The position numbers and the translations under genes are program-made. 64,000 bases of DNA from Candidatus Omnitrophota bacterium (GTDB lineage Bacteria > Omnitrophota > Gorgyraeia > Gorgyraeales > Gorgyraeaceae): contig JBDRJN010000014.1 of assembly GCA_043814965.1 (NCBI GenBank), forward strand, positions 3,084 to 67,083, read 5' to 3'. The notes beneath the pieces are model-generated. The model was not told the origin of the DNA. It saw only the letters and a program-made list of their open reading frames with translations, and ran no database searches. Every line of letters begins with the position of its first letter. Within the stretch, counting starts at the first letter, position 1. Positions 1,664-50,357 of the stretch are shown here, piece by piece.

Positions 1664-2659
1664 ATGAAGATACTATATCTAGTTAAATATCTTTTTATAC
1701 CATTTTCCATAGTTTATTATCTAATAGTATCTCTTCGTAATTTTTTTTATGATACAAGTATTTTTAAAAGATATTCATTTAAGAATAAAGTAATAAGTGT
1801 AGGCAACATCACGTGGGGCGGGACAGGGAAGACCCCTCTGGCGATATATATAACCAGATTGCTTTTAGACAACAATAAAAAACCAGCAATACTTATTCGG
1901 GGTTATGGTGAGGATGAATACAAGCTTTTTTCTAGGCTGATACCGGATGTACCTGTAGGGGTGGGCAAAGACAGGATCAAGGAAGGAAAAAGATTATTAA
2001 CACATTCTTCTATAGATACATTTGTGCTAGATGATGGTTTTCAACATAGAAGGATCGATAGGGACTTGGATATAGTTTGCATAGACAGCCTGGATCCTTT
2101 TGGTAATGATCTATTGATCCCTGCTGGTTCAATGAGAGAGCCTCTCATGTCTCTTAGCAGGGGAGACATCTTTTTAATAACAAAAGTGGACCTCTGCGCC
2201 AGCAAAAAAAGATCGGATGATCTAGTAAAAAAACTAAAGAGTATAAATCCAAAAGCCATTATAGCAAAGGCTGTTTATAGGCTGGATTATTTTTATGACA
2301 TTAAAGATGGCTCAAAGATAGATGGATCTAAGCTGAGGAATAAAGAACTTGTCCTTGTCTCAGGCATTGCAAGCCCCAGGTCATTCGAAAATACTATATT
2401 GAACCTGGGGATGAAGATCAAAAAGCATTTTGCATTTAGAGACCATTATTTTTATAGCGGTATTAACCTGAAGAGGATAGAGGAGTTTTGCAGGGCTAAT
2501 AATATAGACGGTTTTATTGTCACGGAAAAGGATGCTGTCAAGATAAAGCCGATCGCAGAAAAAAGCAATGTAAAAATATACGTAGCTTCTATCTCGCTTG
2601 AGATCATTGAGAATAAAGATGAATTCCATAATAGACTTTTTACTATTTATAATAGTTAA
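1664..2659 (+). CDS. lpxK: tetraacyldisaccharide 4'-kinase
   Basis: The VISVGNITWGGTGKTPLAIYITRLL P-loop matches the LpxK signature GN(L/I)TxGGTGKTP. Length is 331 aa. Confidence 0.85.
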   Translation: MKILYLVKYLFIPFSIVYYLIVSLRNFFYDTSIFKRYSFKNKVISVGNITWGGTGKTPLAIYITRLLLDNNKKPAILIRGYGEDEYKLFSRLIPDVPVGVGKDRIKEGKRLLTHSSIDTFVLDDGFQHRRIDRDLDIVCIDSLDPFGNDLLIPAGSMREPLMSLSRGDIFLITKVDLCASKKRSDDLVKKLKSINPKAIIAKAVYRLDYFYDIKDGSKIDGSKLRNKELVLVSGIASPRSFENTILNLGMKIKKHFAFRDHYFYSGINLKRIEEFCRANNIDGFIVTEKDAVKIKPIAEKSNVKIYVASISLEIIENKDEFHNRLFTIYNS

Positions 2660-4589
2660 GGCGATCGGGCTGCTGTTGTCCTTTTTGCCTTTAGGCCTTT
2701 CTCTCTTTATAGGGCGAAGGCTGGGGGATATGGCATATCTTGTAAATTCAAAAAGAAGGTCTATCGCATATGCCAATCTAAAGGCTAGCTTCCCTGACAA
2801 AAAAAGAAAAGAGCTTAAAGAGATAGCCAGGTCCCATTACAGAAATCTGGGGATGAATATCATAGAGCTTTTAAAGTTTCCGCAGATGAGCCCTTCTTAT
2901 CTAAAAAGACATATTGAGTTTAGGGGCACGGAAAATACCGAAAAAGCGATTTCACAAGAAAAAGGCGTAATATTATTGACAGCTCACTTTGGAAATTGGG
3001 AGATATCTTCTCTTGCTTCAAATAGTCTTGGATACAAGATGAGCGTTTTTGCAAGGGAACAAAAATATAAAAAACTAGATAACCTGCTTAATCGATATAG
3101 GCAATTAACAGGATGTAAGGTTGTAACAAAGGGTTTTTCTGTAAGAGATATTATAAAAACGCTTAAAGATAATGGCATTGTCGCGATGCTGGCTGATCAG
3201 GATGCAGGAGCTAATGGAGTATTTGTTGATTTTTTTGGAAGAAGGGCTTCCGCGGCTACAGGCCCTATAGTCTTTGGCCAGAAGACGGGAGCAGTGATAC
3301 TGCCTTCTTTCGCAAGAAGAAAGGATGATCTTGATCATTTTGTAGAGATCAATAGACCCTTTGAGCTTATAGATACAAAAGATAAAGAAAAAGATCTCAA
3401 GGCAAATTTAGAAAACCTGAATAAGATCCTGGAGGGGTATATAACAAGATTTCCTGACCAATGGCTTTGGTCTCACAAGAGATGGAAGAGTTCTCCTGAC
3501 AGGAAAGTGCTTTTATTGAGCGATGGAAAGGCAGGGCACCTTAACCAGTCTTTGTCAGCAGCTGACCTGGTAAAGGACGCATTGCGTAGAAGACTCGATA
3601 GGAAGGGCATAAAAGAAAATGAGATCGTAGATATAAAAATCTGTGAGATTGAGTTTAAAAATAGGTTTACCAGGATATTTTTGGATATTGCAAGCGTATT
3701 TTCCGGCAGGCGCTGCCAAGGCTGTATGAGGTGTTTAAAGTTTTCCCTTACAAAAGAATCTTTTAAACGTGTCGCGGCCCAATATGCCGATATTGTGGTC
3801 TCGTGCGGGTCATCCCTGGCATCTGTAAATATATTTTTGAAATACGAGAACAATGCTAAAAACTGTATAATCATGAAACCAGGTTTCTATAATCGCGGCA
3901 AATTTGATAGGGTTATGATCTCAAAACATGATATGCCTTTTAAAAAGAGCCCTAACTTAGTTATTACAGAACTTCCGCTGAACAATATTACAAATATAGA
4001 GATGGATAAGAAAACCTCTGATGTGTTTGGGGAAGATATCGCTAAAGGCGGGGTAGGATTATTGGTAGGAGGCGATGCAAAAGGTTTTAGCCTGGATAAA
4101 GAATATACTGAAAGGCTCTTGGAAGCAGCCTTAAGGATATGCAAAGATAGATCACTAGGCTTATTTGTAACTACTTCTAGAAGGACCCCAGTCGAAATAG
4201 AAATGTATCTTAAAGACAAGCTTAAGGATGATGTATTATGTAGATCTCTTGTAATAGCTAACAAAGGTAATGTACAGGGCATAGTACCTGCGATATTAGG
4301 GGTAAGCGATATTATTTTGACAACACCAGATTCAGTATCTATGATCTCAGAGGCTGTCTCTTCAGGGAAATATGTAGTGGTTATAAAAGAGCATAAAAGT
4401 AAAATTAGACAGGGGCATGAGAATAAGTACGATAGGATCATAGCTAACTTGGAAAGAGACGGATACATAGAGACAGCTTATCCTTCTGGTATTTACGACA
4501 AGATAGCATATCTTCTAAAAAATAGGCCCAAGATCAAGGTTTTAAAAGATAGGGACATAGTGAGAGATTCTTTGGAATCAATATTATGA
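2598..4589 (+). CDS. lipid A biosynthesis acyltransferase (LpxL/HtrB family) fused to a C-terminal ELM1/DUF1022-like domain
   Basis: The N-terminal approx 300 aa carry ILLTAHFGNWE and MLADQDAG, as in LpxL/LpxM. From about nt 3500 the segment KVLLLSDGKAGHLNQSL matches the DGKAGhxNQslG start of the PF06258 (ELM1/DUF1022) family. The start is uncertain; 2598 overlaps the end of lpxK, and 2619 is an alternative ATG. Confidence 0.7.
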   Translation: MRSLRIKMNSIIDFLLFIIVKAIGLLLSFLPLGLSLFIGRRLGDMAYLVNSKRRSIAYANLKASFPDKKRKELKEIARSHYRNLGMNIIELLKFPQMSPSYLKRHIEFRGTENTEKAISQEKGVILLTAHFGNWEISSLASNSLGYKMSVFAREQKYKKLDNLLNRYRQLTGCKVVTKGFSVRDIIKTLKDNGIVAMLADQDAGANGVFVDFFGRRASAATGPIVFGQKTGAVILPSFARRKDDLDHFVEINRPFELIDTKDKEKDLKANLENLNKILEGYITRFPDQWLWSHKRWKSSPDRKVLLLSDGKAGHLNQSLSAADLVKDALRRRLDRKGIKENEIVDIKICEIEFKNRFTRIFLDIASVFSGRRCQGCMRCLKFSLTKESFKRVAAQYADIVVSCGSSLASVNIFLKYENNAKNCIIMKPGFYNRGKFDRVMISKHDMPFKKSPNLVITELPLNNITNIEMDKKTSDVFGEDIAKGGVGLLVGGDAKGFSLDKEYTERLLEAALRICKDRSLGLFVTTSRRTPVEIEMYLKDKLKDDVLCRSLVIANKGNVQGIVPAILGVSDIILTTPDSVSMISEAVSSGKYVVVIKEHKSKIRQGHENKYDRIIANLERDGYIETAYPSGIYDKIAYLLKNRPKIKVLKDRDIVRDSLESIL

Positions 4590-6721
4590 ATATACTGCAG
4601 ATCCTTCCAGCGCTTGAAGTAGGCGGAGTTGAGACAGGGACCATCGATCTATCCCGTGAACTTATGAAACGGGGCCACAATGTCATCGTTGTCTCTAATG
4701 GCGGTAAGATGGTAAAGCATCTTGTAGACATGGAAGCCCGCCATATCAAGCTGCCTGTACACAAAAAGTCACTAGTGACTATTATAAAGATGATAAAGAG
4801 ATTAAGGTATATTATACAAGAAGAAAATGTAGATATTGTGCATGCAAGATCCAGGGTCCCTGCCATAATAGCTTTTTTTGCTGCACGTTCTACAAGAGCG
4901 AACTTTATAACAACAGCGCATGGTTATTATTCTACGCATCTATTGAGCAAGGTGATGGGATGGGGTAAATTTGTGATCGTCGCATCAACTATCATGGGAA
5001 GGCACATGATAGAGAATTTTAAAGTCCCTCATGAAAGGTTAAGGTTTATACCCAGGGGCGTTGACCTTGAAGGCTTTAATTTTAATCCACCGGATCAATC
5101 AGATGCAAAATCGGAATATAAGATAGGTATAGTAGGCAGGATCACTCCGATAAAAGGGCATAGTTTTTTCTTGCAGTCTATCGCAAGAGTAATAAGGATA
5201 TTTCCTAAAGTAAAGATCCTTATCGTAGGCGACGCGCCTAAGGAAAAGCCTGAATACAGGCGTAATCTGGAACTTCTTATAAAAAAACTTGATATAGAAA
5301 GATTTGTTGAGTTCCTGGGCTCCAGGGATGACATGCCTAAAATTATGTCTTCTCTTGATCTATTGGTCTCTTCTTCTGTGGGGCAGGAGGCATTTGGAAG
5401 AGTAATAATTGAAGCAGGCGCAAGCGGTGTGCCTGTTGTGAGTACGCGTATAGGAGGAGTTGTAGATATAATCGAGGATAACAAGACAGGCCTTTTAGTA
5501 AAACCTGGTGATATAAAAGAGATGGTGGATGCTATATTAAAAGTTTTAAAGGACAGGAATCTTGCCAGGAACCTTGCAATCGAAGCAAGAAAAAAGGTAG
5601 AAAAGGAATACAATCTTAATGCTATGGCAGAGCGTACTATCAAAGTCTATGAAGAAGCGATAGATAAGAAGCGGATATTGGTCATAAAACTTGGGGCAAT
5701 AGGGGATGTCATACTTTCCGTCCCGAGCCTAAAACTCTTAAGGAATAATTTTCCCAATGCCTTTATAAGCGTATTAGTGGGGAATGAGTCCAGGCATATA
5801 TTGAAAAAGTGTCCATACATAGACGATATAATACTATATGACAATAGATCCAGCAGCAACATAAGGTCTCTTGTAAAGATATCCAATACAATAAGATCCA
5901 AGGGGTTTGATATGTCCATAGACTTGCAGAATAATAAAATAAGTCATTTTATAGCCTGGTTCAGTTTTATACCTATGAGATCTGGTTATGATAATAAAAA
6001 ACTCGGGTTTTTGCTTAATAATGGTATCAAGTATTTAAATATCGCTTCCGGCCCCATAGAAGAACAATTCAGGATCCTCAAAAAAGCGGGGTGTGATACA
6101 TCATCAGCCTCGAGGAGATTGGAATTATGGCCTTCCAGGGAAGATTTTCTGTATGTGGACAATTTTTTAAAAAGTGAATGGATAGGTGAGGGCCAGGTAC
6201 TCATCGGGATAAATATAGGAGGAAGCTGGAAGACAAAAAGATGGCCTAAAAGAAATATCGCAAGGCTTATTGATATGTTTGCTTCAAAACATATAAGAGT
6301 TGTCATAACTGGCGCGGAGAATGAAAAGGCCTTGGCAGAAGAACTCAAGTGTATCACAAAATCAAAGATCATAGATGCGGTCTCAAAGATAGACATATTA
6401 CAGCTGGCTAGCCTTATAAAAAGGTGTAAAGTATATATTACCGGAGATAGCGCTCCTATGCATATAGCTTCGGCTATGGGAGTAGAGTTTATAGCACTGT
6501 TTGGGCCGACAGACCCCAGGAGGCATGTTGAGCCAACAGCTAAGGCGGCTGTTATAAAAAAAGACCTGGCCTGTGCACCTTGCTATAGGTCAAAGTGCAA
6601 GAATATCATCTGTATGGATAAGATCAGCGTAGATGAGATATATAGATTGGTGATGGAAAAAATAGGAGATAATAAATCCGAAATCCGAAATCAGAAATCC
6701 GAAACAGATCCAAGATCTTGA
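4586..6721 (+). CDS. bifunctional glycosyltransferase: N-terminal GT4 (GT-B) domain fused to a C-terminal GT9 heptosyltransferase domain
   Basis: The N-terminus has ILPALEVGGVETGTIDL and the EAFGRVIIEAGASGVPVV EX7E-like region (GT4). From about nt 5670 it has ILVIKLGAIGDVILSVP and GDSAPMHIASAMGVEFIALFGPTDP, as in WaaC/WaaF/RfaQ-type GT9. The last 15 codons overlap a heptamer repeat. Confidence 0.7.
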   Translation: MNILQILPALEVGGVETGTIDLSRELMKRGHNVIVVSNGGKMVKHLVDMEARHIKLPVHKKSLVTIIKMIKRLRYIIQEENVDIVHARSRVPAIIAFFAARSTRANFITTAHGYYSTHLLSKVMGWGKFVIVASTIMGRHMIENFKVPHERLRFIPRGVDLEGFNFNPPDQSDAKSEYKIGIVGRITPIKGHSFFLQSIARVIRIFPKVKILIVGDAPKEKPEYRRNLELLIKKLDIERFVEFLGSRDDMPKIMSSLDLLVSSSVGQEAFGRVIIEAGASGVPVVSTRIGGVVDIIEDNKTGLLVKPGDIKEMVDAILKVLKDRNLARNLAIEARKKVEKEYNLNAMAERTIKVYEEAIDKKRILVIKLGAIGDVILSVPSLKLLRNNFPNAFISVLVGNESRHILKKCPYIDDIILYDNRSSSNIRSLVKISNTIRSKGFDMSIDLQNNKISHFIAWFSFIPMRSGYDNKKLGFLLNNGIKYLNIASGPIEEQFRILKKAGCDTSSASRRLELWPSREDFLYVDNFLKSEWIGEGQVLIGINIGGSWKTKRWPKRNIARLIDMFASKHIRVVITGAENEKALAEELKCITKSKIIDAVSKIDILQLASLIKRCKVYITGDSAPMHIASAMGVEFIALFGPTDPRRHVEPTAKAAVIKKDLACAPCYRSKCKNIICMDKISVDEIYRLVMEKIGDNKSEIRNQKSETDPRS

Positions 6722-41174: not shown

Positions 41175-41203
41175 TTGACAGGAAAGCGGTTACATGGTAT
41201 ACT
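41175..41203 (+). promoter_or_regulatory. putative sigma70-type promoter of the giant gene (TTGACA-17-TATACT)
   Basis: TTGACA at 41175-80, a 17-nt spacer, then TATACT at 41198-203. A hairpin GCTACTTT..AAAGTAGC lies in the leader. An AAGGAG RBS lies 6 nt before the ATG at 41287. Confidence 0.5.
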
Positions 41204-41286
41204 TATAATAGCTACTTTCAAATACTTTTAAAGTAGCTTTAATAAGTCAAACAAACAGGTTAAATAGGAAAAGTAAGGAGATATTA

Positions 41287-44200
41287 ATGACAGTATGTTC
41301 TTTAAGGAAAACGTGTTCTGTCTTTTTAATAGTGATCTTTACTATTACTAATATTGCCTATGGAGCTCCCAGCGAAAGGTCCTTTTTTAAGAATAAAAAA
41401 GTAGATTATAAGAAATTAAGCACCCAAAGCCAAGAACAGCTCGAGAAGAAAAAGGCTGTTTTAAGCGGTGAAGATGTAAAAAAGACAAGTAAAAAACCTT
41501 CCAAGGCCAAGCAAATAGATTTTAGCGCCCATCTAAGCGATATATCAGAGATAAATATCCCCGGCGAATTAGGAAGAGTCGTTGAGGTATATAAAGCCCC
41601 TGATTCTGAAAAAGACAAGAACAGGCTTGTAGTACATATCCAGGACCTCCATGCCAATCCTGAGGCTACACTTAACCTGGCAAGTATATTGGAGATATTG
41701 GTAAAAGATTATAACCTGGATCTAATATGTTCTGAAGGCGCGGAAGGAGAGGTTGATACATCAAGCGTTTCCAGTTTTCCTGACGCTGAGATCAGGAAAA
41801 AGACAGCAAAGCTATTTGTAAATTCAGGAGAACTTACAGGAGAAGAATACCTTTCTATTACCAAATACCCGGATCTTCCTATATGGGGAATAGAAGATAA
41901 GGATATATATTTCAATAATATAGTCCAGTTCAATAAGATAATGCAGTTTTCCAACTCCAGTTATGTCTTTATCTCGCAGTGCACAAATGCGCTGGATGCG
42001 TTGAAGCCTTACATATACTCAAAAGAGATCCTGGAATTGGACCAGAAAGAATCCGAATACGATAATGGTAATCTGGAGACATCTTTGTACCTGGATTATG
42101 TCTTGCCTTATGTGGAGCAGTTCAATATATCGAAAGACAAATATAAAAATATCTCTCTTTTAACAGAGACGATGGCTAAAGAAAAGACTATTGACCAGCA
42201 AAAGGTGATGAAAGAATCGCAAGACCTTTTAATGGACCTTCAGAATATGCTTTCAAGAAAAGGCGGAGAATCTGACCTGGAAGCCCTGATAGCCAAGGCA
42301 GAGCTTTTTAAGAATAAGAAAATATCGCCATTCTCTTTCTATAATTACCTGAAGGGCCTGGCTCAGAAGCACCTGAAGGAGAAATCAGAGAGCTATACGT
42401 ATCTAAATGAATTTATAGATTATCTTACCAAGGTAAACGATCTTGATGCTTCAAAGCTTTTTACTGAGATCGGGGAATTAAGTTATGAGATAAAAGATAA
42501 TCTTGCCAAAAAAGACGAAGAAAAGCTTCTTACAAAGGTTATACGTAATGCAAAGTTCTTGACAGGGTTTTTTAGCCTCAAGATATCCAATGAAGAGCTT
42601 GACTACTACCTGGAAGACAAACCTTCTTTTGAAGTATCATTCTTTAAGGAATTCCTAGAGCCCAACCTTAAAAAATATAATATTACGAGTTACGTGGATT
42701 ATAACCCTGAATTTATAGACAATAAGTTCAGCGAAATAGAGGAGTTTTACGGTACTGTAAAATCGCGAGATTTTTCCATGTTCAATAATTCCATGTCTCA
42801 GATCGAAAGTAGAAGAGCAAAAGTCGCAGCCCTTATATCAGGAGGTTTTCATACCAGGGGCATAACAAAACTATTAAGAGAAAAAGGTTATTCTTATGTA
42901 GTTATATCCCCTTACTCTTCGCAGGAGACAGATGAAGAGAACTACCACTTCCTTCTCTCAGGACAGCGTAAACCAATAGAAGAGCTTATAAGGCAGCTAG
43001 ACGTAGAAGAGACAGTCGATAGATTATCTTCCAATGATAATCTGCGCAGTTTAATGCGTTTCGGGAATAATACAGTAGAGGCCTGGAATAATTCTGTAGT
43101 ACCTCAAAAGATAGCTGAGATATTGGGATTAAAAGTAGAAGACGTACAATTAGAGCCTTTATTGAATGATGCTGCAATTGTGCTGGGATTAAGCAGCGGC
43201 GCAGAAGCATGGCATAGTTCTCCGGTAGGTATGGAAGTAAGGTCTCCAAGAAAAGGAGAGATAATATTAAAGTTCGATGATAATAGTTATGTAAAGATGA
43301 CGAGCCTTGGAGAGGTAAAACGTGTAGATAAAAAAGAATTCAGAGGAAAGACCACTCTTAGCATAACTCCTAATGTAGACGGAACTATAAATGTAGCTGA
43401 AACTGATAGAGGCAAAGGTTCGCCCCTGGAGTTGTTAAAATTCATGGTGGATGGGACATATTACGAAGGGGAGTCCATATCTAAAGCAGATTTAGTAGCT
43501 GGAAGGTCTTTTTCTGTATCTACTATAGACCTAGAGATAAAAAGCCTTACAGAACTCGGACTATTAAAAAAGAATAGTGATGGGACATATGAACTTACGA
43601 GCTATATAGGCCTAGAGCAATATAATAATATTAAAGCAGTTACAGGTCCTATAGTACAAGTTAATGGTAAAAACGAGGGATTAAATCGTTATAGGATAGA
43701 CGACCTGTCAGAAGATAAAAAGAATGAATTTAAAAATGCCATAGACTTTGCTGTAACTTACCAAAAGACCCCATCAAACTTTCTAAAAAAATTAATCCTT
43801 GCAGGAGGCAAGCTTGATATCAAAGGTACCGGTGAATCTGGCGAGGCCCTTGCGCTTTATTATGCGGATCTAGCTGAGACTTTTGCAGGACCTACTGGAA
43901 TAGAATCTGTGGCATTGAGTAAAAATATTACATTTGCTGAGGCAGGGCTTATAGCAGATATTGTAGATCATGCCAGCGCGCTTAATATTACAGGAACCAG
44001 AAACAGCATAAGTCAAGCTTTTGAAACAGCAAAAAATCTTTCTGTATCACGAGAGGAGCCTAGATACAGTATAAAAGAGACGTCACTAAGTTCAGATTTT
44101 GAAATAGCAAGAAATCTTCCTGATATGTATAGAGATCTTTCCCCGGAAAAGATCAAAGACAAGATCATAATAGTACGAGGCAATTTAAACGCGCCTTTGG

Positions 44201-47200
44201 ATAAATCTGGAGAAGTAAGTGATCCTACCAGGCCGGATAATATTGATAAGGCTGTTACTTATATAATTGAAAATGGAGGTACACCTGTTGTCTATGGCCA
44301 TCTCATGAGGCGTGAAAATAATATATCTATGGAGCCAGTAGCTAGTTATTTATCAGATAAATACGGACAAGATGATGTAGTTTTTCATAAGGGTAGCATC
44401 ACTAAAGACGGATTAACGATCAGTCGAAATAATATTATAAGGGGTAAGATCAATATCCTTGAAAATATAAGGCTCGTAGACAAAGAAAATGAAGCAAAGC
44501 TTGGCAGGCAGATCGCATCTCTTTCTGAAGACAAGATATTAGTAGCTGACGCGCTTGGGGATGAAGGATCAAGCGATGTCGTACATGTCTATAATGCCGC
44601 TAGCGAGGTATATCAGGGGCCGGAAGAAAGAAGAGAATTTTCTGAATTGGAAGATACACTGAAAAATGGCGTTGATGTAGTATTGTTCGGTGGATTTAAA
44701 ATAGAAAAACTGGATCTTTTATTAAGGCTGGTCGATGCCCTGAGAGATGGCGGTGTTGTCTTATTGGGGTCAGGACCTTCAGACCACATCAGGAACGATC
44801 CTGAAATAAAAGAGCAATTAAAAGGCCTTATTGATGCAGGAAAGATCATCTTAGCTGAAGGGGATAAGTATTATTTTAATAAAGTAATGGGAAGGGACAT
44901 GCCAGGAGATATCTCTTCTCAGGATCTAGAGAGATACTCCAATATCCTTGATAACCTTAAACCAGGCCAGAGGGTCTTATTTAATGGGACAATGGGTTTT
45001 ATGGAGAAAAAGGATAGTAATGAAAATATAGAAATATCCTATAGAGAAGGTACTAAAAAGATACTCGAGAAAGTATCTGAGATCAGTGAAAAAGGCGTAA
45101 AAGGCCTTGGAGTCGGAGGAGATGGTACAAAATGGGCCAGGCATTATAGATTGAATAAGAAGGAAAATATAATGCTGTCTACAGGAGGTGGAGTTTCCCT
45201 AAGCCTTATTACGCATGAACCTTTAAAAGGTACTAAAGCGCTTTCCAATAGAGCGCAAACTCAGAAAATTGCAAAGCGAGATTTTTCATCTGAGTATGGC
45301 TATGTAGCTGAGGATTTAGTCGGTCCGCTAGCTAGCATGGCAAAAACTACCAGCCAGGATAATACACCTTACGCAAAATACGCATCAGATAGAGATAATG
45401 TAAGCCCCTCTACCATAAAGACACAACCTGCTATTGGCCGTCCGGAAGCGGTAGCGTATGAGGCAGATTCTCCTTATAATATAATAACGCAGTTACAAGA
45501 AGCTAAAAAAACTGACTATGCCCGAAACTTACAGGATGTAATGAGTGTCGCATTAAGGGATTATCCGGAATTGAGAGATATTTCTTTTAAGATAAAAATA
45601 ATCAGCAACAGCCAGGAAAACCTTGCTGAATATATGCCAGGCCAGGAAATGATAACAATAGATGAGTCTATACTCGCTAATTTTGAACTTATGCGCCAGG
45701 AGCTTATCTCGGAAGAATTCCGCCATATGCTATATAATAATCTTGTACGGTCAGTAAGAAATAAAGATGTAACGCCTAGGCAGAGACTTGTAGAAGAGGC
45801 TGCCACAGATATGCAGAAATTTAGGGACCTTCTTAGGATACAGACAGCCGAGGGAAGAGCTGCTCTTATCGGGCCTTTGATCTATTCTACTGATAAATTC
45901 AATTTCTACAGGCTGCTTTTGAGAACTATACCGCAGGGAAAAGAAAGGAACGATGTCCTGGATATTCTTCTTCGAGACCATTTTATATCAGAAGATTTTA
46001 GAAATAATTATAGTGAGCGTAAAGGGATAAGCGGAGATGAGGAAAGGCAGGTAGAGGCCTTAAATACTCATTATAAAAACAATTCTGTATTTTCTCCGGA
46101 ATTACAGCGCTTGATGATTAAACCTATAACGCTTGAAGAAGTGAAAGCTTATGAAACCGATTTCAATAATATCAGGCTAGAGTATAGAGCGCAGAAGATG
46201 GCTGAAAAGCCGGCATCAGCTGAAGATACATGGACAGAGGTTACTAAGAAGTTTACAGATAAGGCAGAACAATATGAACGTGCAATGATACTTACTGAGT
46301 TAGATAAGATCGCTAGCGGCGACTATGTGGCTGAGGATCTAATCGGTCCGCTAGCTATTAACCAGCTTCCTATAGATGTAAGTGATGATAGAGATACTGT
46401 AGGAATTCTTTTGTCAGCAGAAGGGTTACTTGGAAAAGGTTTTATTAGCGAGAGAAGAATAGATAATAACAATGATCTCGACAGGACCAATCCTTCTAAG
46501 CCAGCTTACTATATTGACCGCATGGAGAATGCATTAGAAGAGCACAGTACATATGATGAGATAATACTCGCAGTTATAGATGACAGGATGAAAACACAGG
46601 TCTGGAAAGAGATTAAAACTGCATTCCAGGGTACTGAATACGAGTTTCTTTTACGTAAGATTAGAGTAGTAAGCAAGATCAAACCTGATACAGGCAATCA
46701 TGATGCAGTAATTGAACTGCTTGATTCAGCTGTAGGTGTAGGAAAAAAGGAAGATAATGATAAAGGTCGTTTCCTTATTATACAGACTGCCGGAAGCGGA
46801 TCTAGGAACTATCCTTTAACAGCAACTGCTAAAGGCAATAAGGGCCTAGTACAGGTACCGGGAGATATTGATGGTAAGGCAGTGTTCAATAATATTATTC
46901 AGACTATCTGCCAATCACATCAGCTCCTTGATGATACCCCATCTGGGACAGTTACTGTGCTGGGATGTGACCAGCTTTGGGCTGTAGCTAATTCAGTAAA
47001 AGGTAGTGGTGCAGGCTTAGATATTCTTGGCAATAGTGTTAGCATGGATAATGTTATTAAAGAACTCGTAGATCTAGGGATTATAAATGGAGTAGAAAAC
47101 AGCAAAATTATTTCTGATCTAACTGAAGAAGAGATTGCTTTAAGAATAGACTATCTTTTTGACCCTAAGATCAGAACTGAAGAAGTAGGTCTAAAATGGA

Positions 47201-49509
47201 GAGGAAAGACAGTAGCAGCCCTAGCACCTAGTCTATATGAGATGTCTGAATTAGGTCATTTATGGTCAGGGGAAGGAACATACCTGGATAGCATGATAGA
47301 AAAACCCAATAACTGGGATATGTTAAAACCTATTCTAGAAAAAGGTTCGACAAATTTTAATTGGTGGAACCATCGTTATAGTATAAGCGGAGCAAAGAAA
47401 GCAGTTGAAATATATAAAGATCATATAGGAGAAGGCCTTGATATCTCCAATGATGTACTGCAGGTTGTAGGTAAAGAATATGAAGATTGGCGCGCTTTAA
47501 GGGTAATGCAGATTAAAAAATTAGCTAGTATTGAAGACGGCAGGAAAGTTAGATTACCCGACGAAGAAGAAACAAGACTGAAAAATATATATATGCTTGC
47601 TTCAGACTTTCATAAGGCATTGGGCAGCTCTATAGGTTATATTGACTTAGGGAAGGATTCAGTGTTTGCAGATACAGGAAAGAATACTGTTTTATTGGAG
47701 TCATATCTTAAAATCTTCAATAATACAAAAGAAGGAGAATTGCTGCGAAGACTTTGTAATATTAAAGAAAGGAATTTTCTTGCGCCCAATGTGCTTAGTT
47801 TTGGTTCACCCAAGTTAAACGAAGCTTTTAAAGCAGGCAAGATAAAAGTAGCAGAGAACGCAAAGGTAATATTTATTGACTCTGATAATGTGCTTGAGGC
47901 TGATATAAAAGCTGGAGGGAGCCTTATAATAGATTCTTGCATAGAAAAGCTTAATGTCAAAGGCAGCGGCCTTGTCTGTTATGTTCGCGAAGAAGGTGTA
48001 GTAGATTTAGAAGAGGGCAAAATTGTAGCTGATGTGGTTAATAAAAATAGTGAACTTGAGCGCATAGTAGAAGACCTAGCTGGAGATCCAAAGGCCAAAG
48101 GTGCCTCGCATCATAGATTTTCACCTGTTATTGAAACGCTAGGAGCTATTAAAGTGGCAAAGATATACGATGATGCCAAGAGATCATTTGAGGCTAGTGT
48201 TAGAGGTAAACAAGCGACAGGCCAGTCTCTCCTTGGCGGTATGGCAGAGGGGATAGGCGTAGATGAATATTCTAGTATAGAGACTAGCAGCCTTAGTGAA
48301 GCTGAAAAAGAGGCGATAACTAGAGAAGCTCTTTCGAATGCAATAGATAATTTTACAAACCTTGAATTATTCAATAAGGTCTTAAATAATTCTACCTCAA
48401 CATATATTACAAGAAACGGCCAGATAACTACTTCTGATGCTGGAGACCTTGGTGCAGCTTTCACGGATTCTGGATTATTGGACCTAGCCATAGAGGCTGG
48501 TATGGAGTTTCCTGTCAATGGTGTTGTAATATCCAAAAATGCCGGGTTAGAGAATGCCCCTATAGAGATAATAAATTCTGTAGCTAGGCATAGTGCTAAA
48601 AAAGATATATTCTTGAGCGCGCTACAGGATATTAAATCAGGCACATTAACTACAGATAATCTGACTCCAGTCGAACTTGAATTCTTATCAGCCGTAAAAG
48701 ACTTTACGGAACTTTCTATCTTTACAGGTTTATTTAGTGAAAATGGGCCTGATTTTATAAAGCTTGATCCAAATGGCTCGGTAAATACATCCGACCTTAT
48801 AGAGCTGAATCTAGAGTTTAGCGATTTAGGTATAATGGAATACGCCAATGATATTGGTCTAGAATTGGATGGAGTAGTGATTTCTGGAGATACTACTACT
48901 GCAGCAGCTGACATGAAGCAGGAATTCGGCCTTAGTTATCAAGATATTGTCTCAACTGACCTAGATGAAGTTGGTGGAGGAGAGGCATTAGGTATTGGCG
49001 GAGAAGAATATAATACTATAGAGACCAGTGGCTTTACTGAAGAAGATCCTATGATTAGTGCTGCTAAGGAAGAACTCAAAAAAGTGACAGAAGCAGTTTT
49101 AAGGCCAGCGCCAAGTTTAGAAACTAGGATGTCCGAACTTTATGATATTTCCTCTAAGGATAAGGTTGACAGTATGAGCCAGATCGATGCTGTATTTGCA
49201 GACAAAGTTATTGGTAATGAGGTAGAGTTCGAGGCATGGCTGCGTGATAAGCGTAACGGAGGCCATGCAGTAGTTATCATAGCAACCGAAGACGAATACG
49301 CTGATGTTGAAAAATATAAAGATATTGCTTACATAAAAGTCTTGGGTAGAGATATAAAAGGCCCAGGTTTTATTAAGAAATTTGAAGAACTAAGAGTATT
49401 GTGCGAATTTAAACAATTTGCGAGTTTTAACTTTGGTGATGTATTAGATGTCTCATCAAATGTTGATGAATACAAGGAAGCATTCGAAGCAGTAGCTGAC
49501 GACATGTAG
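41287..49509 (+). CDS. giant secreted multidomain protein (2740 aa): signal peptide; TraB/GumN-like region; phosphoglycerate-kinase-like domain; sugar-nucleotidyltransferase-like + LbH-like region; acidic repeat-bearing C-terminus
   Basis: Uninterrupted 8223-nt ORF with its own promoter, RBS and terminator. Signal peptide MTVCSLRKTCSVFLIVIFTITNIAYG/AP. Region nt approx 41570-42970 is TraB/GumN-like (LVVHIQDLH..DLICSEG; SGGFHTRGITKLLREKGYSYV). Region nt approx 44160-45230 is PGK-like (VRGNLNAPLD..DPTRPD; GHLMRRE; ILENIRL..KENE; VLFGGFKIEKLDLLLRLVDAL; VLFNGTMGFME; GVGGDGT; STGGGVSLSL). Region nt approx 46770-48040 is NTP-transferase-like (IIQTAGSGSRNYPLTATAKGNKGLVQV; VTVLGCDQLW) with hexapeptide-like repeats (VIFIDSDNVLEADIKAGGSLIIDSCIEKLNVKGSGLV). 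Confidence 0.8.
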   Translation: MTVCSLRKTCSVFLIVIFTITNIAYGAPSERSFFKNKKVDYKKLSTQSQEQLEKKKAVLSGEDVKKTSKKPSKAKQIDFSAHLSDISEINIPGELGRVVEVYKAPDSEKDKNRLVVHIQDLHANPEATLNLASILEILVKDYNLDLICSEGAEGEVDTSSVSSFPDAEIRKKTAKLFVNSGELTGEEYLSITKYPDLPIWGIEDKDIYFNNIVQFNKIMQFSNSSYVFISQCTNALDALKPYIYSKEILELDQKESEYDNGNLETSLYLDYVLPYVEQFNISKDKYKNISLLTETMAKEKTIDQQKVMKESQDLLMDLQNMLSRKGGESDLEALIAKAELFKNKKISPFSFYNYLKGLAQKHLKEKSESYTYLNEFIDYLTKVNDLDASKLFTEIGELSYEIKDNLAKKDEEKLLTKVIRNAKFLTGFFSLKISNEELDYYLEDKPSFEVSFFKEFLEPNLKKYNITSYVDYNPEFIDNKFSEIEEFYGTVKSRDFSMFNNSMSQIESRRAKVAALISGGFHTRGITKLLREKGYSYVVISPYSSQETDEENYHFLLSGQRKPIEELIRQLDVEETVDRLSSNDNLRSLMRFGNNTVEAWNNSVVPQKIAEILGLKVEDVQLEPLLNDAAIVLGLSSGAEAWHSSPVGMEVRSPRKGEIILKFDDNSYVKMTSLGEVKRVDKKEFRGKTTLSITPNVDGTINVAETDRGKGSPLELLKFMVDGTYYEGESISKADLVAGRSFSVSTIDLEIKSLTELGLLKKNSDGTYELTSYIGLEQYNNIKAVTGPIVQVNGKNEGLNRYRIDDLSEDKKNEFKNAIDFAVTYQKTPSNFLKKLILAGGKLDIKGTGESGEALALYYADLAETFAGPTGIESVALSKNITFAEAGLIADIVDHASALNITGTRNSISQAFETAKNLSVSREEPRYSIKETSLSSDFEIARNLPDMYRDLSPEKIKDKIIIVRGNLNAPLDKSGEVSDPTRPDNIDKAVTYIIENGGTPVVYGHLMRRENNISMEPVASYLSDKYGQDDVVFHKGSITKDGLTISRNNIIRGKINILENIRLVDKENEAKLGRQIASLSEDKILVADALGDEGSSDVVHVYNAASEVYQGPEERREFSELEDTLKNGVDVVLFGGFKIEKLDLLLRLVDALRDGGVVLLGSGPSDHIRNDPEIKEQLKGLIDAGKIILAEGDKYYFNKVMGRDMPGDISSQDLERYSNILDNLKPGQRVLFNGTMGFMEKKDSNENIEISYREGTKKILEKVSEISEKGVKGLGVGGDGTKWARHYRLNKKENIMLSTGGGVSLSLITHEPLKGTKALSNRAQTQKIAKRDFSSEYGYVAEDLVGPLASMAKTTSQDNTPYAKYASDRDNVSPSTIKTQPAIGRPEAVAYEADSPYNIITQLQEAKKTDYARNLQDVMSVALRDYPELRDISFKIKIISNSQENLAEYMPGQEMITIDESILANFELMRQELISEEFRHMLYNNLVRSVRNKDVTPRQRLVEEAATDMQKFRDLLRIQTAEGRAALIGPLIYSTDKFNFYRLLLRTIPQGKERNDVLDILLRDHFISEDFRNNYSERKGISGDEERQVEALNTHYKNNSVFSPELQRLMIKPITLEEVKAYETDFNNIRLEYRAQKMAEKPASAEDTWTEVTKKFTDKAEQYERAMILTELDKIASGDYVAEDLIGPLAINQLPIDVSDDRDTVGILLSAEGLLGKGFISERRIDNNNDLDRTNPSKPAYYIDRMENALEEHSTYDEIILAVIDDRMKTQVWKEIKTAFQGTEYEFLLRKIRVVSKIKPDTGNHDAVIELLDSAVGVGKKEDNDKGRFLIIQTAGSGSRNYPLTATAKGNKGLVQVPGDIDGKAVFNNIIQTICQSHQLLDDTPSGTVTVLGCDQLWAVANSVKGSGAGLDILGNSVSMDNVIKELVDLGIINGVENSKIISDLTEEEIALRIDYLFDPKIRTEEVGLKWRGKTVAALAPSLYEMSELGHLWSGEGTYLDSMIEKPNNWDMLKPILEKGSTNFNWWNHRYSISGAKKAVEIYKDHIGEGLDISNDVLQVVGKEYEDWRALRVMQIKKLASIEDGRKVRLPDEEETRLKNIYMLASDFHKALGSSIGYIDLGKDSVFADTGKNTVLLESYLKIFNNTKEGELLRRLCNIKERNFLAPNVLSFGSPKLNEAFKAGKIKVAENAKVIFIDSDNVLEADIKAGGSLIIDSCIEKLNVKGSGLVCYVREEGVVDLEEGKIVADVVNKNSELERIVEDLAGDPKAKGASHHRFSPVIETLGAIKVAKIYDDAKRSFEASVRGKQATGQSLLGGMAEGIGVDEYSSIETSSLSEAEKEAITREALSNAIDNFTNLELFNKVLNNSTSTYITRNGQITTSDAGDLGAAFTDSGLLDLAIEAGMEFPVNGVVISKNAGLENAPIEIINSVARHSAKKDIFLSALQDIKSGTLTTDNLTPVELEFLSAVKDFTELSIFTGLFSENGPDFIKLDPNGSVNTSDLIELNLEFSDLGIMEYANDIGLELDGVVISGDTTTAAADMKQEFGLSYQDIVSTDLDEVGGGEALGIGGEEYNTIETSGFTEEDPMISAAKEELKKVTEAVLRPAPSLETRMSELYDISSKDKVDSMSQIDAVFADKVIGNEVEFEAWLRDKRNGGHAVVIIATEDEYADVEKYKDIAYIKVLGRDIKGPGFIKKFEELRVLCEFKQFASFNFGDVLDVSSNVDEYKEAFEAVADDM

Positions 49510-49554
49510 AGACGTTTTCCAAGCCGTAAGGGAAACTGTCTCTAGCCCAATCGG

Positions 49555-49574
49555 CCTGCCTGCCGGTAGGCAGG
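49555..49574. repeat. 20-bp palindrome CCTGCCTGCCGGTAGGCAGG (copy of the proS-internal palindrome)
   Basis: Identical to 40147-40166 except for the central C/T. It lies 46 nt after the giant gene's stop codon. Confidence 0.8.
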
Positions 49575-49588
49575 GAAAGTGTACCCTA

Positions 49589-49631
49589 TAGGCCTTTTGT
49601 GTACTAAACCTACACAAAAGGCCTATTTTTT
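49589..49631 (+). terminator. Rho-independent terminator of the giant gene
   Basis: Perfect 15-bp stem TAGGCCTTTTGTGTA / TACACAAAAGGCCTA with a 7-nt loop and a T6 tract at 49626-31. Confidence 0.75.
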
Positions 49632-49807
49632 GTAATACTTAAATGCTTAAGTAACAAATCATATTATAGCCGTACCCGGCAAGCCTACGAAAAGACGCTC
49701 GATTGCCCCAGCGAGGCAATCTTTGCTCAGTGCTGCTTCTCGCTCCTCCCACCACTTTTATTAGCGTTGCCTATTATTGAAAGTATTGCAGTAAGTTTAT
49801 TTTTTTC

Positions 49808-49837
49808 TTGACATATTATAGTCTCCTATAGTATATT
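49808..49837 (+). promoter_or_regulatory. putative promoter of rimP-nusA-infB (TTGACA-18-TATATT)
   Basis: TTGACA at 49808-13 and TATATT at 49832-37. A GGGAGG RBS precedes the TTG start at 49872. Confidence 0.35.
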
Positions 49838-49871
49838 ATACATACTCTATTGAAAGGGAGGTGTTTGGATT

Positions 49872-50357
49872 TTGAAGTGGGTTAAGTTTTACCCACTTTT
49901 TTGTTTTATGCTAGACAGGCTCAACGATATCATCCAACCTATCATAAAAGAAGAAAATGCAGAATTAGTAGACCTTATCTATAGAAATGAATCCGGTAGG
50001 CGCATCCTTCGCCTTTTAGTAGATAAAGAAGGCGGGATCACCATGGAAGATTGCGTAAAGATAAATGAACGGATAAGCCAGGCCTTGGATGAAGCTGATA
50101 TTATAAATGAAAAGTTTTTTCTTGAGGTGAACTCTCCCGGGCTTGATAGGCCGTTTAAGAACAAAAGAGATTATGAAAAAGCAGTAGGGAGGTTAGTAAG
50201 AGTTACTCTAAACGCAAAGATCCCTGACAAGATGGAATATATAGCTATCTTAAAGGAAGTCTTGGAGGATAGTATAAAAATAGATGTAAAGAAAAAAGGT
50301 ATAATAGAGATACCTTTTGGGAATATTGTAAGGGCAAGACAGGAAATAGAACTATAA
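49872..50357 (+). CDS. rimP: ribosome maturation factor RimP
   Basis: ELVDLIY..ILRLLVDKEGGI..LEVNSPGLDRP matches RimP. Start is TTG 49872 with an RBS, or ATG 49908. Confidence 0.8.
   Translation: MKWVKFYPLFCFMLDRLNDIIQPIIKEENAELVDLIYRNESGRRILRLLVDKEGGITMEDCVKINERISQALDEADIINEKFFLEVNSPGLDRPFKNKRDYEKAVGRLVRVTLNAKIPDKMEYIAILKEVLEDSIKIDVKKKGIIEIPFGNIVRARQEIEL

Follow-up and report, generated by a model that had tools for sequence, protein, structure and literature searches.

A 2740-residue Omnitrophota protein with a predicted signal peptide, a TIKI/TraB-like head and exchangeable enzyme-like cargo, encoded between proS and rimP

Why would a bacterium keep, within a run of housekeeping genes, one gene of 8.2 kb whose product begins like an exported protein and continues like a string of sugar-metabolism enzymes? 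The question is raised by an open reading frame (ORF) in a 64,000-nucleotide stretch of DNA from a Candidatus Omnitrophota bacterium (assembly GCA_043814965.1, contig JBDRJN010000014.1, positions 3,084 to 67,083), which as a whole we call the window and by whose own numbering coordinates are given. An earlier note on this DNA had described the 2740-residue product as a secreted mosaic of enzyme-like domains and as the best candidate in the window for a novel system. The ORF at 41287..49509 is one real gene, equipped with its own signals for expression, and, judged from its sequence, the protein combines three enzyme folds in which selection has kept the signature residues. The explanation we favor, which we hold at roughly an even chance, is that it is a Sec-exported modular multi-enzyme protein belonging to an Omnitrophota-wide family, in which a signal peptide and a constant head are followed by variable cargo and often by a constant tail. 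Its export, enzymatic activity, substrates and a cell-surface or host/prey role are what we infer from these features.

The part of the protein by which the family is recognized is the head. In the 88 relatives found by the first homology search, residues ~85–570 of the query are common to all, always at the relative's own N-terminus, and this is the only segment that aligns, save in eight proteins that also share the last ~110 residues. Head identity to the query is 45–67% in 40 proteins and 20–33% in a further 47. In a 21-sequence alignment reaching down to 21% identity, the invariant positions are Q119, D120 and H122 (of the motif HIQDLH), E150, G181, G185, G201, E203, Y208, R494, G519, G520 and H522 (GGFH), and P542. 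The TIKI/TraB/ChaN/EreA superfamily is marked by two His-containing motifs together with a conserved Glu and a conserved Arg, and the order of the invariant H122, E150, R494 and H522 along the sequence agrees with this pattern. The AlphaFold2 model of the head (predicted local distance difference test, pLDDT, 88.9; predicted template-modeling score, pTM, 0.81) has a small alpha/beta core split by an all-helical insert of ~300 residues, and the core is the fold shared across the superfamily. A Pfam scan of the query head gave no match to TraB, GumN or Cofac_haem_bdg, and PF04187 (the ChaN family of the Tiki superfamily) matched weakly in 3 of the 21 head homologues, with a best E of 0.0025. The TraB/GumN/TIKI-like motifs noticed earlier were thus rightly read at the level of fold and motif, in a domain too divergent for Pfam. 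Our best reading is that the head is an EreA/ChaN/TIKI/TraB-fold hydrolase, probably a protease or esterase, with its His/Glu/Arg/His catalytic-type set intact. It differs from the known superfamily, which comprises TIKI, TraB/PrgY/GumN, ChaN and EreA and includes the effectors HopBA1 and RRSP, in the ~300-residue helical insert that splits its core, in its lack of a Pfam match, and in its setting, always after a signal peptide and either fused to or directly upstream of giant enzyme arrays. A literature search for a link between TIKI/TraB and giant proteins returned nothing relevant.

How widely is this arrangement distributed? A head scan over one genome per GTDB species gave at least 572 head-encoding stretches, and the query is far from the isolated novelty it had first seemed: its paralogues and orthologues with this module number in the hundreds. 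The best 80 of these at least 572 stretches are almost all from Omnitrophota, some of them mislabelled ‘Planctomycetia’, with several per genome; weaker members, from the protein search, are labelled Elusimicrobia, Endomicrobiaceae and Chlamydiota. The query has the N-terminal hydrophobic signal, the QDxH...E...R...GGxH head and the variable body that define the family. Pfam domains found as cargo in head-bearing proteins include enolase, PFK, PGM/PMM, PGI, UDPGP, class II aldolase, GlpX, transaldolase, glutamate dehydrogenase and mannose-6-P isomerase and, as non-sugar examples, CMP kinase, methyltransferases, ABC1 kinases, M48 peptidases, DUF89 and SecA domains.

The earlier note had suggested looking for orthologues and their synteny, and both were found: in ten loci a head-bearing giant gene lies beside proS, in the arrangement proS-giant(-rimP). 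Between the query and these syntenic proteins only the head (52–75% identity in the close syntenic orthologues) and the tail (34–59%) align, and other syntenic pairs have long middle blocks in common whose positions differ, such as 618–1355 in one protein and 1682–2432 in the other at 57% identity. This is an orthologous slot with a constant head and tail and shuffled cargo. That the locus stays fixed while its cargo varies points to selection where these cells meet others, and would fit the predatory or host-dependent lifestyle proposed for Omnitrophota. At one locus, L001:19096-28865 (GCA_026387235.1, JAPLMD010000069.1), the proS slot holds four family-type genes instead of one, coding for 2954 residues, 577 residues (a stand-alone head), 1537 residues and more than 1897 residues, the last with PGI and FBPase.

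The tail is found at the extreme C-terminus of at least eight family members and has 18 invariant positions in an alignment with eight relatives; it had no Pfam match, and its profile gave nothing significant against PDB. Tail and head together bear on whether the ORF encodes one protein at all. An assembly chimera, or a decaying pseudogene, would bring together domains that do not come from one protein; the sequence is from a metagenome-assembled genome (MAG), and the middle 2,000 residues are without a close homologue. Against this, the 8.2-kb frame runs without interruption, it does not depart from its neighbours in GC content or GC skew, it is bracketed by a promoter, a ribosome-binding site and a terminator, two of its domains (X and the nucleotidyltransferase, see below) are also adjacent in the unrelated proteins P0091 and P0092, and head and tail flank it as they do in syntenic orthologues from other assemblies. 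Since the ends of the ORF match the head and tail of these orthologues, they belong together and a chimeric assembly is unlikely. Taking frame, composition, expression signals and head/tail synteny together, we reject the artefact and pseudogene accounts, whose joint probability we consider minimal.

Within the cargo, Pfam and NCBIfam scans of the whole query and of four sub-segments found phosphoglycerate kinase as the sole family (PF00162, E = 1.1e-27, 97.5 bits against a cutoff of 27, in two stretches), and alignments to solved PGKs cover both lobes (residues 25–391 of the segment). The PGK landmarks listed before are present, in order. Equivalents of E. coli PGK residues R38, H62, R65, R122, K215, K219, N336 and E343, of the GGD motif and of the STGGG hinge are retained, and the nucleotide/phosphoryl-transfer motifs read FGGFKIEK, FNGTMGFME, GGDGT and STGGGVSL. 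The basic patch for 3-phosphoglycerate is incomplete: D23 is replaced by N, and the segment GTAHRAH, which carries R170, by GDEGSSD. Because of these two replacements the acceptor site differs and PGK activity is doubtful, which bears out the suspicion of an altered or inactive site, for which Arg38, Lys215 and Arg170 were the positions to compare: the first two are kept and the segment of the third is replaced. The other family member from the homology search with a PGK Pfam domain, P0020, retains the H-R pair. With phosphoglycerate kinases in general the domain shares the two-lobed fold, the N-lobe Arg/His, GGxKxxxK, NG.MG..E, GGD and the STGGG hinge; it differs in being embedded in a 2740-residue protein with predicted export, in its remodelled acceptor site, and in its low identity, about 25%, to its best database relative, a canonical PGK. 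We read it as a putative PGK-fold phosphotransferase with an altered acceptor site.

Further downstream an exhaustive HMMER search against 1.84 billion representatives found 26 relatives in two blocks, one covering residues ~1394–1640, which we call domain X, and one covering residues ~1730–2300. All named homologues are annotated ‘hypothetical protein’, among them proteins from Aminicenantes and Elusimicrobia. The second block contains GSGSRNYPLT at residue 1836, and in a 14-sequence alignment (A2) G1836, G1838, R1840, K1852 and D1895 are invariant, with P1843, K2006 (of the EKP motif), and D2129 and G2131 (D-x-G) conserved in at least 90%. Searched against PDB, the A2 profile matched only ADP-glucose pyrophosphorylases (best E = 5e-4) and RmlA (0.007), with E up to 0.02, and the three matched motifs are collinear. 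The AlphaFold2 model (pLDDT 86.4, pTM 0.88) shows a Rossmann-like core that ends in a beta-helix; its best Foldseek match, with 547 aligned columns at E = 1.8e-8, is the GDP-fucose pyrophosphorylase part of FKP (PDB 9iis); mannose-1-phosphate guanylyltransferase (ManC) and many ADP-glucose pyrophosphorylases come next, and sugar nucleotidyltransferases make up the top 19 matches and 22 of the top 23. For residues 1831–2330, Pfam gave no NTP_transferase or UDPGP family even at E≤10, nor did it in ten homologues, and phmmer against PDB gave no matches. The nucleotidyltransferase with hexapeptide-like repeats proposed in the earlier note therefore stands on motifs, profile and predicted fold, while the expected Pfam NTP_transferase match did not appear. 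FKP and the ADP-glucose and mannose-1-phosphate enzymes share with the query GxGxR...K, the Asp of the catalytic region, EKP and D-x-G, and a Rossmann-like core followed by a left-handed beta-helix; the query differs by large insertions, TM-scores of only 0.45–0.48 and the missing Pfam match, and its type forms an unannotated family of its own, often with X in front.

Domain X stands directly upstream of the FKP-like domain in P0091 and P0092, and this adjacency makes the pair a recurrent cassette. P0091, P0092 and P0105, which have both X and a nucleotidyltransferase, are labelled Aminicenantes and Elusimicrobia and annotated hypothetical, and we regard X plus nucleotidyltransferase as an undescribed two-domain cassette. 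In P0105, X lies ~430 residues upstream of a Pfam NTP_transferase domain.

Could such folds serve binding rather than catalysis? The protein might be mainly a non-catalytic surface adhesin or scaffold, its enzyme folds acting as ligand-binding modules for sugars, nucleotides or host-surface molecules, in the manner of moonlighting glycolytic enzymes on cell surfaces. The divergence of the PGK-like domain, ~25% identical to its best relative, with GTAHRAH/R170 gone and D23 changed to N, would sit well with this, as would a nucleotidyltransferase undetected by Pfam models, a C-terminal part that is acidic and repetitive, and the adhesion roles that the literature has proposed for giant Omnitrophota proteins. 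However, the positions that remain invariant in distant homologues are the catalytic signatures (GxGxR, K, D and EKP in the nucleotidyltransferase; H, E, R and H in the head), the PGK-like domain keeps the equivalents of K215, K219 and E343 as well as GGD, and neither adhesin-type repeats nor lectin domains turned up in Pfam and repeat scans. Conservation that singles out catalytic positions makes the adhesin or scaffold account rather improbable in our view, and we continue with the enzymatic one.

The domains of the query are joined by stretches that perhaps tell how the cargo is exchanged. The earlier note had pointed to repeats in the acidic C-terminal part and to the motif YVAEDL[VI]GPLA occurring twice, and both pairs were found, also as direct repeats in the DNA. 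The 35-nt repeats are spaced by exactly 1023 nt (341 codons; residues 1339 and 1680) and bracket domain X, and the 68-nt repeats are 741 nt apart, with the protein motif GIGxxEYxxIETS at residues 2322 and 2569 in an acidic region of residues 2300–2615. Self-BLAST and tandem repeats finder (TRF) runs on the query protein gave no internal or tandem repeats beyond these two short motif pairs. We considered whether YVAEDLxGPLA and GIGxxEYxxIETS might be protease cleavage sites shared by the family; neither is present in any of the 88 relatives, so that they are not family-wide recognition sites, and this candidate was rejected. Our reading is that both repeats are linker duplications at cassette boundaries, with the 35-nt repeat in particular having the look of an intragenic recombination joint or cassette boundary. 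Of 89 family proteins, 26 have isolated exact repeats of 7–31 residues whose copies lie over 100 residues from each other, a feature absent from the shuffled controls, and linker or cassette duplications may be general in the family.

As to the remaining regions, residues 571 to ~820 are partly common to the closest relatives, and the Pfam and NCBIfam sub-segment scans gave nothing for residues 571–950, 1321–1830, 1831–2330 or 2331–2740. A weak winged-helix-like match (Pfam HVO_A0261_N, E = 0.13) falls at window positions 43471–43602 (residues ~729–772). A word-indexed protein search with residues 1331–2740 gave no matches, which we take as a limit of the tool rather than as absence of homologues, since its sub-sequence queries (1331–2740 and the PGK segment, for which a single canonical PGK came back) missed even the parent entry P0001 at 100% identity.

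This brings us to the question of export. The hydropathy scan of all 2740 residues gave one hydrophobic segment, residues 9–27, and no other transmembrane (TM)-like stretch. Residues 1–27 comprise a basic n-region (R7, K8), a hydrophobic core of ~9–12 residues and a polar c-region with the site AYG/AP, and the small-x-small site after a short h-region is conserved family-wide, even in relatives at 25–30% identity; the signal-peptide call is based on these classical sequence features and on family conservation. The same design recurs in loci that encode the two parts apart. Of 78 genome loci, 19 have a free-standing head gene, of about 530 residues within a span of about 505–700; in most of these split loci the body gene, with its own ribosome-binding site, follows a few to ~260 nt after the head gene, and each of 15 inspected body genes has its own basic-hydrophobic-AxA N-terminus. 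In L037:9917-18932 (Omnitrophota MAG STD1_220, JAQUPI010000003.1), a 507-residue gene for signal peptide and head overlaps the start of a 2500-residue gene, whose product has a signal-peptide-like N-terminus followed, in pathway order, by PFK, a GatZ/KbaZ-like aldolase region, GAPDH and PGK (371 bits). Bodies downstream of stand-alone heads, likewise with signal-peptide-like N-termini, carry TIM and GAPDH (L038:11395-16416), an archaeal-type FBPase_3 with 315 bits (L051:11121-14213) and a DeoC/LacD-type aldolase (L053:1934-5866). The N-terminus thus looks like a cleavable Sec signal, conserved also across this gene split, and export of the query protein is predicted from it. The LPS-containing diderm envelope of the organism and the signal-peptide topologies published for larger Omnitrophota proteins (both described below) speak for the same prediction.

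Several observations weigh against export of an active enzyme array. PGK-type and nucleotidyltransferase chemistry needs ATP or other NTPs and sugar phosphates, which are not expected in the periplasm or outside the cell. A lysine-rich stretch, unusual for an exported mature N-terminus, directly follows the hydrophobic segment in the query's subfamily. The canonical domains in relatives, such as the PGK at 371 bits and the FBPase_3 at 315 bits, look like working housekeeping enzymes, no secretion-system genes were seen among the neighbours in the window, and the PGK-like domain of the query itself may be inactive as a PGK. Several of these points would be accounted for if the protein were instead a membrane-tethered cytoplasmic metabolon, in which the hydrophobic segment is an uncleaved anchor, or the topology call is wrong, and the array on the cytoplasmic face is one scaffold that organizes ordinary sugar-phosphate and nucleotide-sugar metabolism. 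The cargo chemistries all require cytosolic cofactors, and near-canonical PFK, GAPDH, PGK, TIM and FBPase occur in relatives, in L037 in pathway order. The gene has housekeeping surroundings and its own sigma-70-like promoter. The flank after the hydrophobic segment is the more basic one in the query's subfamily (+4 after against +2 before), and the ~3 TM segments that directly follow the head in more distant family members would put their cargo in the cytoplasm. In addition, West-Roberts et al. (10.1101/2023.11.21.568195) doubted that the glycolytic domains they described are extracellular.

On the other side, cleaved signal peptides typically have a hydrophobic core as short as the ~9–12 residues of the query, with a small-x-small site behind it like the one conserved here, the separate bodies in L037, L038 and L062 have strongly basic n-regions followed by AxA sites, and the query has no further TM segment to return the chain to the cytoplasm. 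The relatives of the head fold are also to be considered: TIKI, PrgY/TraB and ChaN are membrane or periplasmic proteins that hold this domain outside the cytoplasm. We consider the cytoplasmic metabolon unlikely, and nevertheless give it substantial weight, because beyond the cytoplasm one would not expect to find ATP, NTPs or sugar phosphates.

Let us assume, then, that the Sec-exported multi-enzyme protein is the correct description. The gene's own promoter would drive its synthesis and the protein would be carried across the inner membrane to act in the envelope or beyond, where an array of sugar-phosphate and nucleotide-sugar enzymes would be tethered to a hydrolase. The cargo units in the query would be a divergent PGK-fold kinase, X, and an FKP-like NDP-sugar pyrophosphorylase with all its signature residues; the kinase would keep the residues for nucleotide binding and phosphoryl transfer, with the acceptor (3-phosphate) pocket remodelled. 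The most plausible site of action would be the interface with a host or prey cell, or the envelope glycans. In evolution, exchange of cassettes between short linker repeats would swap the cargo, while head and tail are kept.

To what extent is such a protein already described? The earlier note knew of no protein that exports a glycolytic-kinase fold and a sugar-nucleotidyltransferase fold on one giant polypeptide, and as a claim that glycolytic folds exported on giant polypeptides are undescribed this no longer holds: predicted cases are described in two preprints. West-Roberts et al., 2023 (bioRxiv 10.1101/2023.11.21.568195) describe Omnitrophota ‘Archaeovorins’ of more than 30,000 residues with many TM helices, SecA-DEAD domains and, in regions that are predicted to lie outside the cell, domains resembling TPI, PGI, FBPase, PGM and FBA, a location that the authors doubted for the glycolytic domains. 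A 2026 preprint (10.64898/2026.06.07.730766) classes proteins of at least 10 thousand amino acids (kAA), including a ‘multi-enzyme metabolic cluster’ class, some of whose members have a signal peptide only, and gives signal-peptide-only topologies for 9–13%, with a class of signal peptide plus TM also obtained from DeepTMHMM. The query shares with both a single Omnitrophota polypeptide tiled with divergent central-carbon and sugar-metabolism enzymes, an N-terminal signal peptide, enzyme parts predicted outside the cytoplasm, a poorly conserved middle and a proposed predatory or host-dependent link. It differs in size, by a factor of 10 to 50 (2.7 kAA, where the 2026 set starts at 10 kAA and the Archaeovorins exceed 30 kAA), and in having no TM helices beyond the single hydrophobic segment of the signal peptide and no SecA-DEAD, C39/S8 peptidase, glycosyltransferase, methyltransferase, NUDIX, HEAT or dockerin domains, PGK being its sole Pfam family, although SecA or methyltransferase domains do occur in some other head-bearing proteins. 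It is defined, unlike them, by the TIKI/TraB-fold head and the conserved tail, in a conserved housekeeping slot. We found no mention of the head, the tail, the proS-rimP slot or the split head and body genes in the available parts of either preprint; what had been noted already are giant Omnitrophota proteins with glycolytic-like domains that are apparently exported. The query perhaps works like a miniature of the Omnitrophota giant proteins, one that falls outside their size, TM and SecA definitions.

A functional analogy, and only that, may be drawn with MARTX toxins and polymorphic effectors, which are likewise large, are secreted, and have conserved ends that bracket central enzyme modules. 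In MARTX the central enzyme set differs between strains through recombination, and the MARTX effector RRSP has the same fold as the query head. Pfam and repeat scans of the query found no RTX repeats, cysteine protease domain or type I secretion signal, and with no defining domains or tandem repeats present, membership in MARTX was rejected. Its cargo consists of metabolic-enzyme folds rather than known toxins, and delivery into another cell would be pure conjecture.

Table 1. Features of the giant gene and its product, in window coordinates.
Feature	Coordinates	Strand	Basis or remark
Sigma-70-like promoter TTGACA-17-TATACT, TG extension	41175..41203	+	11/12 positions matched
Ribosome-binding site AAGGAG	41275..41280	+	6 nt 5' of ATG, read from sequence
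ORF, 2740 residues	41287..49509	+	Uninterrupted, 2740 codons; sole long ORF there
Signal-peptide-like N-terminus, residues 1–27	41287..41367	+	Hydropathy and flank analysis
Lysine-rich linker, residues 28–84	41368..41538	+	Contains SFFKNKKVDYKKLS, motif conserved in close subfamily
Conserved head module, residues 85–570	41539..42996	+	EreA/ChaN/TIKI/TraB-fold alpha/beta core (predicted), helical insert of ~300 residues
Region between head and PGK-like domain, residues 571–950	42997..44136	+	No Pfam family
PGK-like domain, residues 955–1325, both lobes	44149..45261	+	Pfam, alignments to solved PGKs
35-nt direct repeat, copy 1, encodes YVAEDLVGPLA	45300..45334	+	Linker after PGK-like domain
Domain X, residues ~1394–1640	45466..46206	+	Exhaustive HMMER search; motif LLDxPxLLxQELxSEEFxHxL
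35-nt direct repeat, copy 2, encodes YVAEDLIGPLA	46323..46357	+	91% nt identity to copy 1
Nucleoside diphosphate (NDP)-sugar pyrophosphorylase-like domain and C-terminal left-handed beta-helix, residues ~1730–2300	46474..48186	+	Motifs, profile, predicted fold
68-nt repeat, copy 1, encodes ...GIGVDEYSSIETS...	48234..48301	+	Start of acidic segment
68-nt repeat, copy 2, encodes ...GIGGEEYNTIETS...	48975..49042	+	72% identity to copy 1
Conserved C-terminal tail domain, residues ~2615–2740	49129..49506	+	Alignment A4 with family C-termini
Intrinsic-terminator-like hairpin 49588–49626, 16 pairs, then T tract	49588..49632	+	Sequence/hairpin scan

The coordinates of the gene and its parts are collected in Table 1. 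All the elements of an autonomous unit that had been claimed for it (promoter, ribosome-binding site, Sec-type signal peptide and terminator) were found, the signal peptide by its hydropathy and flank features, and its position between proS and rimP-nusA-infB among housekeeping genes agrees with the earlier description: upstream lie uppS-cdsA-dxr-rseP-ispG-proS, and downstream rimP-nusA-infB and then a class I tRNA synthetase (trpS/tyrS). Other genes in the window are for lipopolysaccharide (LPS) biosynthesis, OmpA, an H+-pyrophosphatase and further housekeeping functions, and the LPS and OmpA genes indicate a diderm organism with an LPS-containing envelope. In the LPS cluster two genes are fusions, one (2598–4589) of a lipid A acyltransferase with an ELM1-like domain and one (4586–6721) of a GT4 glycosyltransferase with a GT9 heptosyltransferase. 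An Rfam search of the whole window gave no matches. The 360-nt spacer 5' of rimP (window 49510–49900) contains several hairpins and a second strong promoter-like site, TTGACA-18-TATATT at 49808–49837, and a terminator-like hairpin at 49874–49899 overlaps the listed TTG start of rimP; the spacer may serve the rimP-nusA-infB operon as a leader or attenuator, with the true start of rimP perhaps further downstream.

Lastly, we need to consider what a protein of this kind would mean. The ORF product is identical (100% identity, 100% coverage) to P0001, an NCBI entry whose source is a contig of 69 kb and which bears the name ‘MAG: phosphoglycerate kinase [Candidatus Omnitrophota bacterium]’; names of the type ‘phosphoglycerate kinase’, and pathway calls made from them, may mislead. 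A bolder scenario, in our view a long shot, is that head plus tail constitute a delivery or processing chassis for rapidly exchanged metabolic enzymes, which are exported to where the bacterium joins a host or prey cell, or even into that cell's cytoplasm, so that metabolism is outsourced. The cargo of such a chassis would be, for example, strings of PFK, aldolase, GAPDH and PGK, or FBPase, enolase or PGM, or the PGK-fold kinase and FKP-like nucleotidyltransferase of the query. If this were true, the partner's sugars would be converted to ATP, phosphorylated intermediates or nucleotide sugars, to be taken up by the nanobacterium, and the TIKI/TraB-like head would process or release the modules.

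Omnitrophota are abundant, uncultured and ultra-small, and are thought to depend on other cells. Their giant proteins, with enzymes of cytosolic type behind signal peptides, are a recognized puzzle, of which this protein of 2.7 kAA and its relatives, with their constant head and tail, interchangeable cargo and naturally split genes, offer a tractable, expressible version. Whether glycolytic enzymes are exported in these organisms, whether they are active and what the head does are questions that this family makes testable.

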